Shown here in pieces: positions 52,736-56,020 of a stretch of DNA of 64,000 nt (positions within the stretch are counted from its first letter, which is position 1; the number at the start of each line of letters is the position of its first letter). A program made the translations under genes and the position numbers. Source of the DNA: Waddliaceae bacterium (GTDB lineage Bacteria; Chlamydiota; Chlamydiia; Chlamydiales; SLFE01); NCBI GenBank assembly GCA_963771045.1, contig CAVYRW010000004.1, positions 128,001-192,000 on the forward strand, written 5' to 3'. A model generated the notes under the pieces. That model worked only from the letters and a program-made list of their open reading frames with translations. It was not told where the DNA came from and made no database searches.

Positions 52736-53602
52736 GGCTGTGTTGAATAACTTAAATTTTTAAATTGTCTAACCCAAGTTTTCTTATCTGATAATCATGC
52801 TGTTATCATAGCGTTCAGAATTTGAAGCTTGAGTGAATTCTCAACTCTTTGTCTTTCATATGTTTTTGAAAATAGTCGACCTCCAAAGAGTCGTTTATAC
52901 CTAGAGAAAAAGGTTTCAACAAGCACTCTTCTACTGTAGCCTGTCAGCTTACCCCATAACGATCTGGCTCGCTCATCATTTCCAAGCCCCATTATCTCGA
53001 GTGCTGCATTATCACGCTCAGCTCTATCATACCTTACTTTTGCATTGCGAGGCGGCGGAATTATTGGTTTAGCTCCGCGCTTTTTTATGCTGGTTCGACA
53101 TTTTTGTTTATCATAGGCTCCGTCTGCTTTTACCTCGTCAATCTTGCCATTAATTTGATCAAGCAAGTCCTCGACTACAGAGGAATCACTAATGTTCGAA
53201 TCAGTCAATGATTCTGCAACTACTTCTTGAGTATCCTCATCTAAAGCTACATGGAGTTTCAACCACTTGTTGATCTCTTGAAATACTGAACGCGCAAATC
53301 CTTCAAGAGCACGATAACCAAGGTTAAATCGAATCTTCACAACCAGGAGAAGTTCAATGAGGGCATCGAGATATTTTGTAGGTCTTCCATTTTTGGATTT
53401 TGGCTTAAATTTCTGAATCTCCCGAACGGTTTTTTGATGGATCATGAAAGTTACACTTCCACGTTGAACGAGTTTTCTGTTATATTCACTCCAGATGCGC
53501 TTTTGCATTCGAAACTCCTTGCTGGTTTTGTCGTTAGCTAAGGAGTTTCTTTCTTTTAGGGGATATTTATCAAGTCTTTTCTAGAGGTTTTTCAACACAG
53601 CC
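52736..53602 (-). mobile_element. IS5 family (IS903 group) element, internally deleted
   Basis: IRs GGCTGTGTTGAATAAC / GTTTTTCAACACAGCC; 9-bp TSD GTCCGCTCG (52727-52735, 53603-53611); 867 bp. Confidence 0.92.
52795..53508 (-). pseudogene. IS903-group transposase with in-frame internal deletion
   Basis: WSEYNRKLVQRGS, KLHVA, ADGAYD and GYSRRVLVET present; the ~60-aa segment holding the IDSTG Asp of the neighbouring intact transposase is absent. Confidence 0.85.
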
Positions 53603-53686
53603 GTCCGCTCGTTAAAGCTCGCTCAAGACGCAAAGTTTTAGAGAATATTCAAACAATAATTTGAATAAAATTTTATTTAAATTGGT

Positions 53687-53746
53687 GGCGTTGTTGCATA
53701 AATCACCACTGAGACCACCGAGCTCACTGAGAGATTATGAGAGAGG
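53687..53746. repeat. Left extended inverted repeat with 9-nt periodic units
   Basis: ACCACTGAG-ACCACCGAG-CTCACTGAG-AGATTATGAGAGA immediately inside the TIR. Confidence 0.85.
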
Positions 53747-53748
53747 AA

Positions 53749-54156
53749 TTAAATGATTAGACGCCTAATCCCATTTTTTAGAAGTTTTACATTGAAATTG
53801 ATGAGCAAACCTCTGCCACCACCATTATGCTTAAGATAGGATAGAAGTTGGGCCTCATGAACAGGCAAGAAATTGGCCACAGATTTTATCTCCAAAATAA
53901 CCTTATCTTCCACTATCATATCGATCCGGTAGCCTGAGTCTAGCTTTTTATCACGATAAATAATAGGTACTGGTATCTGCCGGTTAACTTTCAAACCCGC
54001 AAGGTTCAACTCGTAGCAAAGACAAGTTTCGTATGTCGATTCAAGCAAGCCTGGACCTAATCTTCGATGAACTTCAATCGCAGCACCTATGATTTCCCCT
54101 GTTAAAAGGTCATTTCTTTTTTGGTTGGCTTCTTCAGTTGTGTGGGTACTAGTCAT
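53749..54156 (-). CDS. GxxExxY protein (PD-(D/E)xK nuclease family)
   Basis: IIGAAIEVHRRLGPGLLESTYE, RIDMIVEDKVILEIKS, HEAQLLSYLK, GLLINFN. Confidence 0.96.
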   Translation of the reverse strand: MTSTHTTEEANQKRNDLLTGEIIGAAIEVHRRLGPGLLESTYETCLCYELNLAGLKVNRQIPVPIIYRDKKLDSGYRIDMIVEDKVILEIKSVANFLPVHEAQLLSYLKHNGGGRGLLINFNVKLLKNGIRRLII

Positions 54157-54240
54157 CTTTTCTCCAAAAAGGGCGAATGCGAGCTTGCCGACAAATACCT
54201 AATACTCTAATTTTTAGTTGCAACAAATTGGAGGATCAAG

Positions 54241-55185
54241 ATGAAGGCAAAATATCGCATTCGCAACTGGAACGACTATAACAAATCTCTTATTCAAAGG
54301 GGAAGCATAACTGTTTGGTTTTCTGAAGATGCTATCAATAAGTGGATGGCTCCAAAAGAAATAGGAAAAAAGGGGCGTCCAAAACTCTATTCTGATGACG
54401 CTATTCTCACCGCGCTCATTATTCGATCGGTTTTTCATCTTCCATTGAGAGCACTCGAAGGATTTTTGACATCTCTTGTTATGATTTTATCTGTTGGTTT
54501 ATCGATTCCTTCTTATACTCAAATTTGTCGGAGAGCTAAGTTGTTGGGGCAAGAGTTGAAGAAACTTTCGAAAAAAAAAGTCACCAATATTGTAATCGAT
54601 TCAACCGGTTTGAAAGTGTACGGAGAGGGTGAATGGAAAGTTAGGCAGCATGGAATCAGTAAAAGGCGAACATGGAGAAAGCTCCATCTGGCAGTCTGCC
54701 CTGACTCTCACGAAATTATTTTCGAAATTCTTACTGAAAATAACGTTGCAGATTGTGAAGTGTATCCAAAACTTCTCGAGGTAATGCCGAAATCAGTTAA
54801 GCGCACATATGGAGATGGGGCTTATGATACTAAGCGATGCTATGCTGCAAATGTAGTTCACGGCTCAATTCCTATTATTCCACCCAATAGGAATGCTGTT
54901 TTTCGAGAAAACATATCTCCTTCTTGGAAGATGCGGAATATCAGTTTGCTGGAAATTTCAGGTTTAGGAGGTGATGATGATGCAAGAAAATTATGGAAAA
55001 AGTTGAAAGGTTATCATCGTCGATCACTTGCAGAAACAGCCATGTTTAGATTTAAACGATTCTTTGGAAATGATTTAAGAAGTAGAACTCTGGAAACCCA
55101 AAGGGCTGAATCAAGGGCAAAATGTGAAGCACTAAATATAATGACAAAGCTGGGAATGCCTGAAAGTGAATTAATAGCAGCTTAA
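54241..55185 (+). CDS. IS5 family (IS903 group) transposase, apparently intact
   Basis: NWNDYNKSLIQRGS, IDSTGLKVYGEGEW, WRKLHLA, GDGAYD, GYHRRSLAETAMFR. Confidence 0.97.
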   Translation: MKAKYRIRNWNDYNKSLIQRGSITVWFSEDAINKWMAPKEIGKKGRPKLYSDDAILTALIIRSVFHLPLRALEGFLTSLVMILSVGLSIPSYTQICRRAKLLGQELKKLSKKKVTNIVIDSTGLKVYGEGEWKVRQHGISKRRTWRKLHLAVCPDSHEIIFEILTENNVADCEVYPKLLEVMPKSVKRTYGDGAYDTKRCYAANVVHGSIPIIPPNRNAVFRENISPSWKMRNISLLEISGLGGDDDARKLWKKLKGYHRRSLAETAMFRFKRFFGNDLRSRTLETQRAESRAKCEALNIMTKLGMPESELIAA

Positions 55186-55191
55186 ATCAAA

Positions 55192-55250
55192 TCTCTCATA
55201 TTCTCTCTGTGCGCTCTTGTGAGCTCTGTGGTTAATTACGCAACAAAGCC
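55192..55250. repeat. Right extended inverted repeat with 9-nt periodic units
   Basis: TCTCTCATATTCT-CTCTGTGCG-CTCTTGTGAG-CTCTGTGGT-TAATTACGCAACAAAGCC, an imperfect inverted copy of the left end. Confidence 0.85.
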
Positions 55251-55416
55251 TAAATTGGTAATAAAATTACTTACATTTTCTAAAACATATTAAAAATAAT
55301 TGAGTTAAATTAATTAATAAGTTATAACTATAACTTAGTTAAAAACTTAATGGAGTTGATCAGACAAAATTCAACCGGATTTTTCGGTCATAGATCTTAA
55401 TATTTAAGAAGTCGTT

Positions 55417-56020
55417 ATGGATGTTAAAGGAGTAGGACCTTCATTTCAGCAGAAATTACTAAAGGTTGAAGCACGTATAGATACTCTTCCTTATGAATTA
55501 TTGTTCCAAATTTATTCTTATCTTGAATTTAAGGATCTTCAAAACCTTGCATTGGTTAATACAATAACTGGAGGGGTGACACGAGATAACAAATTTTTAG
55601 GAGTAAAAATAAGCCAAAAAGCCTTTAAAATACTCAGTTTGCCATCTGATGACAAAGAAAAAAAAACGCTGAAAACTTCTTGAATTCAGAAGCACCGCGG
55701 TCGATTACTGAACTCGATCTTTCAAATTTACAAATGACAGATGACCTTATAGATAAGTTGGTCGGCAAATTTCCAAATCTCGTAACAATTAACTTGTCTA
55801 ATACTCAGCTTTCAGCTCAGCAAGTACAAAAGCTTTTAAAGTTAAAAAATCTAAGATTTCTAAATTTATATGTAAAATCGGCGCTGAAGGGGCAAAAGAA
55901 CTTGCCGAAGCGCTGAAAAAGAATAAAACCCTCATAGCACTTGATTTGAGGCTTAACAGCATCGGTATTGAAGAAAAACGTGCTTTAAGAAAATTGGGTA
56001 TCGAAAGATTGATTCTTTGA
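55417..56020 (+). pseudogene. F-box / leucine-rich-repeat protein split over three segments
   Basis: F-box IDTLPYELLFQIYSYL; LRRs ITELDLSN, LVTINLSN; last segment KIGAEGAKELAEALKKNKTLIALDLRLNSIG (RNI-like LRR). Confidence 0.75.

Follow-up and report, generated by a model that had tools for sequence, protein, structure and literature searches.

An insertion sequence (IS) of the IS903 group, located in the window that we analysed (a 64,000-nucleotide stretch of the Waddliaceae genome G000; other G and L numbers denote the genomes and loci compared with it), was found to carry a second gene, of the GxxExxY type, and periodic arrays that abut both of its terminal inverted repeats (TIRs). The element is real and recently active, and its two genes spread as one unit. 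We consider, with a probability of about 0.5, that GxxExxY and the arrays form a selfish module comparable to REP/RAYT systems, which rides on the IS and whose nuclease would act on the arrays. This fusion of a nuclease-repeat module to an IS903-group variant is apparently undescribed: our search of freely accessible article texts found neither GxxExxY cassettes nor this IS described. The element offers a candidate substrate for GxxExxY, the arrays; it is small and recently active, with each part removable, and an IS427-group element of genome G016 provides a natural filled and empty site for a GxxExxY cassette. The function of the GxxExxY family is therefore directly testable in the laboratory. 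Should the module mobilise its own repeats, it would be small mobile DNA of a new kind; should it work for the IS instead, DDE insertion sequences would have a novel nuclease as accessory.

Structure, proteins and mobility of the two-gene element

The original prediction described a 9-bp duplication bracketing IS903-type TIRs, a transposase gene and a divergent GxxExxY gene, and all of these features were found (Table 1). The element measures 1,564 bp between the duplications and has two ORFs, the starts of which are divergent and 84 nt apart. Its ends can be aligned over 58/59 nt with 79.7% identity, in agreement with the proposed extension of the inverted repeat to about 58 bp, and the similarity located inside the 18-bp TIRs gave a score that was reached by 0/5,000 shuffles. 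Each array lies just downstream of one of the genes, as had been noticed, starting 4–6 nt past a stop codon. Three CTCnGTGnn units per end had been claimed; this description suits the left array, in which the units (53725-31, 53716-22 and 53707-13) are clean 7-mers with a 9-nt period, but not the whole of the right one (55205-11, 55214-21 and 55224-30), in which the middle unit (CTCTTGTG) is longer by one base and the period is 9 then 10. In the end comparison, the core of the left TIR is that of plain relatives and of ISSod12, and the unit and tail of the left array are identical in kind to those found beside free-standing GxxExxY genes. No array is present upstream of the window GxxExxY gene, which is thus not part of a canonical cassette. 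A TIR-like TTGTTGCA word between the two genes was discarded, as it is not conserved in relatives.

Table 1. Positions of the element's features in the window
Feature	Position	Strand	Remarks
Left 9-bp target duplication	53678..53686	+	TAAATTGGT
Left IS903-type TIR, 18-bp	53687..53704	+	14/18 match to right TIR
Left array	53705..53744	-	TCTCTCATA lead, three units, GT tail entering TIR
GxxExxY gene, 135 aa	53749..54156	-	TIGR04256, PF13366 profile matches
Divergent intergenic region	54157..54240	.	alignment of 4 hybrid + 6 plain elements
IS5-family IS903-group DDE transposase, 314 aa	54241..55185	+	NF033579, PF13737, PF01609
Right array	55192..55232	+	TCTCTCATA lead, three units, GT tail
Right TIR, 18-bp	55233..55250	-	14/18 match to left TIR
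Right 9-bp target duplication	55251..55259	+	TAAATTGGT

The assignment of the transposase to the IS903 group was upheld by the NF033579 score (289 bits vs a cut-off of 140), with additional matches to PF13737 and PF01609. Its catalytic residues are D120, D192 and E265, the latter within Y258-R261-E265-K272, and the protein is ∼46% identical to ISSod12, ISVa2 and IS903B. The IS903 group (IS903B, ISSod12 and ISVa2; ISPam1, ISPko1 and ISPpa8) and the window element have the transposase family, the TIR core and the 9-bp duplication in common; however, group members are about 1,050 bp long with one gene, and it is the periodic arrays that lengthen the inverted ends to 58/59 nt in the window element. 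With its 1,564 bp and two ORFs, the latter is therefore a variant rather than a plain member of the group, for which TIRs of 15–27 bp, a 9-bp duplication and outward promoters are given in PMC3281130.

The GxxExxY protein scored 146.9 bits against TIGR04256 (cut-off 35), PF13366 being its sole Pfam match. It contains G36-E39-Y42, D79, E89-K91 and Q103-Y107; in an alignment of 45 homologues, E39, E89, K91, Q103 and Y107 are invariant and D79 is nearly so. We take E39, D79, E89, K91, Q103 and Y107 to be the catalytic residues of a PD-(D/E)xK enzyme, and the protein is a predicted nuclease. The GxxExxY/PF13366 family is very large, as 8,000/8,000 scored candidates were homologous. A PDB search gave no significant match, the only matches being to RelE (E 0.3–0.8), a relationship that we discarded as chance; an atlas search gave no usable match outside PF13366, the PHROGs search gave no matches, and PADLOC returned nothing beyond weak Cas4 scores (E 0.014–0.017). 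A single 217-nt contig from an RNA run, lying on GxxExxY, was rejected as evidence of expression. PMC3424549 lists the function of PF13366 as "Unknown" and records multiple transfers, and in 10.1101/2021.01.26.428298 GxxExxY is named in passing beside a reverse transcriptase.

Genome G000 contains 16 full-length copies that are 99.87–100% identical, 12 of them bordered by a perfect 9-bp duplication, different in each case, and four by none; the element is therefore not an assembly accident. The open reading frame is intact in 16/16 copies for GxxExxY and in 15/16 for the transposase. Near-identical copies are also present in G001, and the same transposase is found in the Waddliaceae bacterium records L151–L154. 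Most of the element was recovered from 19 DNA runs of soil and salt-marsh metagenomes, and the left flank was distinct from the 16 of this genome in one of the four runs examined; run X1, which has a flank common to this genome, was left out as independent evidence. These data demonstrate that both genes inserted as one unit, as had been proposed from the window. Copies were inserted in AT-rich targets (flank GC 0.31–0.42). No other arrays were present in the 30-nt flanks of the copies, free arrays being few in this genome, and the orientation relative to replication, 9 against 6 among the 15 copies of the main contig, gave no signal.

Arrays, captures and exchange of GxxExxY genes

Arrays were searched around other GxxExxY genes with an outward-pointing CT[CT]NG[CT]G pattern, in a metagenome set of 80 loci of which 75 were counted, five having been dropped for short flanks. 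Outward arrays were present on both sides at 49/75 loci, a count that is not blind as the detector was widened after the flanks had been inspected, and on at least one side at 62/75; inward arrays on both sides were found at 7/75. The stricter first detector (9-nt period, GTG only) found 14/75 loci. Among Chlamydiota loci, both sides were occupied at 13/30 and at least one side at 24/30. The controls, treated under the same rule, gave both-side values of 0.00 for shuffles and 4/420 (metagenome) or 1/107 (Chlamydiota) for distant windows. By tblastn, and by Pfam searches of one ORF on each side, the longest (135 ORFs, 79 loci), a transposase was found to adjoin GxxExxY at only 1/80 metagenome loci. 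The tabulation proposed with the original prediction places the arrays with the gene. The neighbours are mostly housekeeping genes, and free cassettes frequently lie between co-oriented genes. These counts indicate that the arrays are a property of the GxxExxY family at large and not of the IS.

The arrays are also dispersed. One array pattern occurs in 137/401 Chlamydiota genomes, with up to 194 matches; it was found in 104/154 genomes with GxxExxY vs 33/246 without, and at least 10 matches were found in 49/154 vs 6/246, these counts being made on related genomes and including the arrays beside the gene. About 190 matches are reached in genomes with one GxxExxY match. Free arrays form doublets, both head-to-head and tail-to-tail, which fold strongly (z -11 and -13 as DNA), whereas single arrays fold no better than shuffles (z 0.87, 0.50 and -0.55). 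Free doublets showed no consistent flanking duplication, and Rfam searches near them returned tRNAs only, in 6 loci.

The 110 loci retrieved by transposase make up a redundant set in which some flanks are short. GxxExxY is present at 0/98 loci whose transposase is <65% identical to that of the window, and two exact array units at 0/161 distinct ends of plain relatives. Transposases at least 68% identical form one branch (support 100/99), the members of which are G000, G001, G260, G011, G301, G288 and the metagenome locus L042. Two or more exact units are found at 10/12 main-branch ends, and base-interrupted units at the other two. The G288 copy is devoid of GxxExxY, and its transposase match starts at residue 56; no intact main-branch member without GxxExxY was found, this single copy appearing to have no transposase start. 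The TIR-array junction pattern was detected in 28/401 genomes (reversed control, 0); many of the matches are short derivatives, a perfect 9-bp duplication being present at 5/11 of those checked, and many relatives of the element are deleted or decayed. At the transposase end, arrays are retained even between copies whose synonymous distance is saturated, and the spacing from the 11-nt TIR core to the array is mostly 7–9 or 15–18 nt, that is, two classes ∼9–10 nt apart; persistence and spacing hint at a role in the IS itself. These comparisons indicate that the hybrid is an old lineage. In G157, arrays accompany a transposase outside the main branch (a single origin is not rejected, p-AU 0.065), and the trees suggest a second IS903 origin in this genome.

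How the two parts came together can be read at the left end. The hybrids keep a TTG-17-TAA(A/T)TT motif of plain elements (54185-54213 in the window; 4 hybrid and 6 plain elements aligned), which appears promoter-like; a sigma-70 scan did not detect it as a promoter. The GxxExxY start and an RBS-like GGAGA coincide with the site of the left TIR in plain elements. The retained upstream motif and the position of this start show that the module entered at the left TIR, either by insertion or by trimming of a composite transposon. The merging of a GxxExxY-plus-repeat module with a DDE IS, put forward in the original prediction, is thus supported by this entry site and by plain relatives that have neither GxxExxY nor the arrays. 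Conversely, the one-off capture that had been raised as the contrary case is at odds with the hybrid lineage, the junction pattern in 28/401 genomes and the low dN/dS values.

These values, obtained by simple codon counting and saturated for deeper pairs, are 0.04–0.25 for GxxExxY where dS is measurable and 0.06–0.19 for the transposase. The GxxExxY protein is under purifying selection, in the free and the IS-borne state. In the comparison of G000 with G260, the transposase gene gives a dS of 0.42, and GxxExxY, over 102 codons, a value of about 2.1, which is close to saturation: the two genes are without one common history. A GxxExxY gene 78% identical to that of the window is located in G002 behind an mreC-like gene (by translation), with an array doublet and with neither TIR nor transposase at the locus, and at L041 a free cassette is flanked on either side by arrays. 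Both genes nest among IS-borne ones, which therefore do not form one clade; monophyly was rejected with p-AU 0.007 for the main IS903 set and 4e-6 for all (135 columns, many forks weak). These trees indicate that GxxExxY exchanges between IS-borne and free-standing copies.

In G016, a different IS5-family element, assigned to the IS427 group by its split transposase and its ends (PF13340, PF13586), carries a complete cassette (array-GxxExxY-array) downstream of the stop codon of its transposase. The element is 1,395–1,415 bp long and is present as four full copies among the eight loci examined (G016:C15:161032-162426 (L262), L263, L264 and L268). The cassette lies inside the right TIR, at one end only; in four other genomes, 17/17 related loci have an empty site. 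Each side of the cassette shows a copy of the 14 innermost bp of this TIR (12/14 alike), an approximate duplication that counts as one imperfect event. Between two G016 variants, GxxExxY dN/dS is 0.10. We regard this element as the best evidence here that the cassette inserts as a unit and is indifferent to the type of transposase; on the sequences compared, the module was captured by ISs at least two, possibly three times.

Possible roles of the nuclease and the arrays

The IS903-group element would be moved at its outer TIRs by its own DDE transposase, as its group and the 9-bp duplications argue. The predicted nuclease would bind the arrays and act on them rather than on the transposase. 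It would nick DNA, and units bounded by arrays would in this way be copied into AT-rich sites, of which the inner half of an IS5-family TIR is an example; this is the mechanism proposed for RAYT and REPINs. The right array would have been copied from the left end and kept because the whole IS interior is now an array-bounded unit, and selection on the GxxExxY gene would arise from its own array-directed activity; binding or cleavage of the arrays is the activity that we infer for the module by analogy. The module would hitchhike independently of the transposase, because it is also found in an IS427-group element and has been swapped with free copies. As in RAYT-REPIN systems, defined in PMC5581495, a small enzyme gene is flanked by a repeat that is also dispersed as doublets, and the presence of both is correlated across genomes. 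In contrast, RAYT is an HUH (Y1) tyrosine transposase and GxxExxY a predicted PD-(D/E)xK nuclease with PF13366 only; the REPIN repeat is a palindromic hairpin and the single array a tandem run without folding; and the GxxExxY gene is multi-copy inside an IS. The six genomes with at least 10 arrays in which no GxxExxY was found run counter to the selfish-module reading. An extended form of it, which we advance tentatively, would make GxxExxY the mobilising enzyme of an undescribed, phylum-spanning repeat class, a PD-(D/E)xK counterpart of RAYT-REPIN. The IS itself would then be stable and have two enzymes and stacked ends, the nuclease acting at both of these to retain or propagate it.

The main rival reading, which we consider less likely, makes the nuclease an accessory factor recruited by the IS; it would be bound to the arrays and either aid end pairing or processing as TnsA does, or nick at the donor site and thereby restore the copy after excision, in the manner of TnpB. 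The abutment of arrays on both TIRs, with two or more exact units at 10/12 main-clade ends vs 0/161 in plain relatives, and the two TIR-array spacing classes speak for such a role; the finding of no intact main-clade member without GxxExxY is just as compatible with a benefit to the IS. TnpB of IS605/IS607 is an accessory RuvC nuclease that uses a guide RNA and is encoded beside a conserved non-coding end sequence. The window element is alike in that an IS encodes the nuclease and that conserved non-coding end sequence adjoins its gene, but its transposase is of the DDE and not of the Y1 or serine type, and no RuvC domain is present; an Rfam search of the element gave no match, which counts against an accessory role, although an undescribed RNA may exist. 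Tn7 has TnsB and repeated end sites, and in this type of heteromeric transposase the nuclease binds the DDE subunit and is required for excision. With TnsA, a PD-(D/E)xK protein serves a transposon and is encoded with a DDE transposase (PMC3424549); however, the window element has no TnsA Pfam match and no TnsC/D/E genes, and its nuclease can be exchanged and is missing in close plain relatives, which move without it. Three observations speak against a dedicated partner, whether TnpB-like, the loose analogy of the original prediction, or TnsA-like: plain relatives make 9-bp duplications with the transposase alone, an IS427-group element carries the module at a single end, and GxxExxY is swapped between lineages, with free genes nested among IS-borne ones.

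Purifying selection in both states and the location of free genes mostly between housekeeping genes would also suit a passenger that benefits the host in DNA repair or defence, its arrays being regulatory flanks and the far-end copy a functionless product of inverted-repeat homogenisation. This is unlikely given the weak Cas4 scores, the patchy distribution with varied neighbours, and the ∼190 array matches beside one GxxExxY match, as expected of a spreading repeat. In transporter ISs, passenger genes lie between one TIR pair; the window element resembles them by its extra gene, but here the passenger brings its own cis repeats, at both IS ends. Passengers of transporter ISs take no part in transposition, and on this point the comparisons made for the window element argue in both directions. 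More improbable still is a function of the arrays in RNA, in which paired arrays would form a long stem round the insert and read-through transcripts would be cut, with less harm in operons, a situation that may be likened to ORF-bearing rRNA intervening sequences. The strong folding of doublets, the ability of the two ends of this element to pair and the frequent location of free cassettes between co-oriented genes are in its favour, but a single array does not fold, each IS transcript would hold only one array, doublets occur in both orders, and the conserved nuclease residues are left unexplained. Finally, a neutral one-off capture that is now drifting would account for the many deleted or decayed relatives; it is largely refuted by dN/dS far below 1, and at least two, possibly three, captures and the retention of arrays at both ends leave it hardly credible.

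Derivatives and neighbourhoods

Directly to the left of the element lies an internally deleted IS5-family element with different ends (window 52795-53508, -), and to its right F-box plus leucine-rich-repeat ORFs in two pieces (55417-55916, +), which are of a eukaryote-like type common in chlamydiae. Elsewhere in G000, a chimeric copy (C4:1701314-1704285) consists of 349 nt identical to the main family on the left and a right part 78% identical, one 9-bp duplication enclosing the whole; a 1,398-bp multi-copy IS (IS256-like, by inspection) occupies the precise crossover point, within the codons of the GxxExxY motif. Deleted or partial derivatives are found at C2:86186-86491, C4:997659-998663 and C1:38398-38546. 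Outside IS copies, free arrays lie at C4:887880 and at C4:1320130-1320230, the latter being a divergent doublet that contains no gene and lies upstream of a guaA-like ORF. In other genomes, G334:C1 (L391–L393) has nested doublets of two array subtypes, with CTCTGTG inside and CTTTG[TC]G outside; G156:C5 and C7 (L396, L397) have array doublets that lie inwards of IS903-type TIRs by ∼40–45 nt and form a miniature element of longer TIR-array spacing; and the G016 array pattern is matched 111 times in that genome, in many cases within 285-bp units with a deleted GxxExxY.

Viral contigs contained five transposase relatives, all without GxxExxY, and seven array-pattern matches that we judged to be chance; no transposase of >60% identity was found among the best 5,000 plasmid records, and eight of the plasmid records searched carry GxxExxY. 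Ten of the 80 metagenome GxxExxY loci (L045, L046, L059, L062, L070, L074, L076, L082, L110 and L114) immediately follow a gene of the MoxR AAA type and in many cases precede DUF58, and others repeatedly follow tRNA-synthetase or methylmalonyl-CoA mutase genes; these recurrent neighbours suggest old insertions or hot spots.
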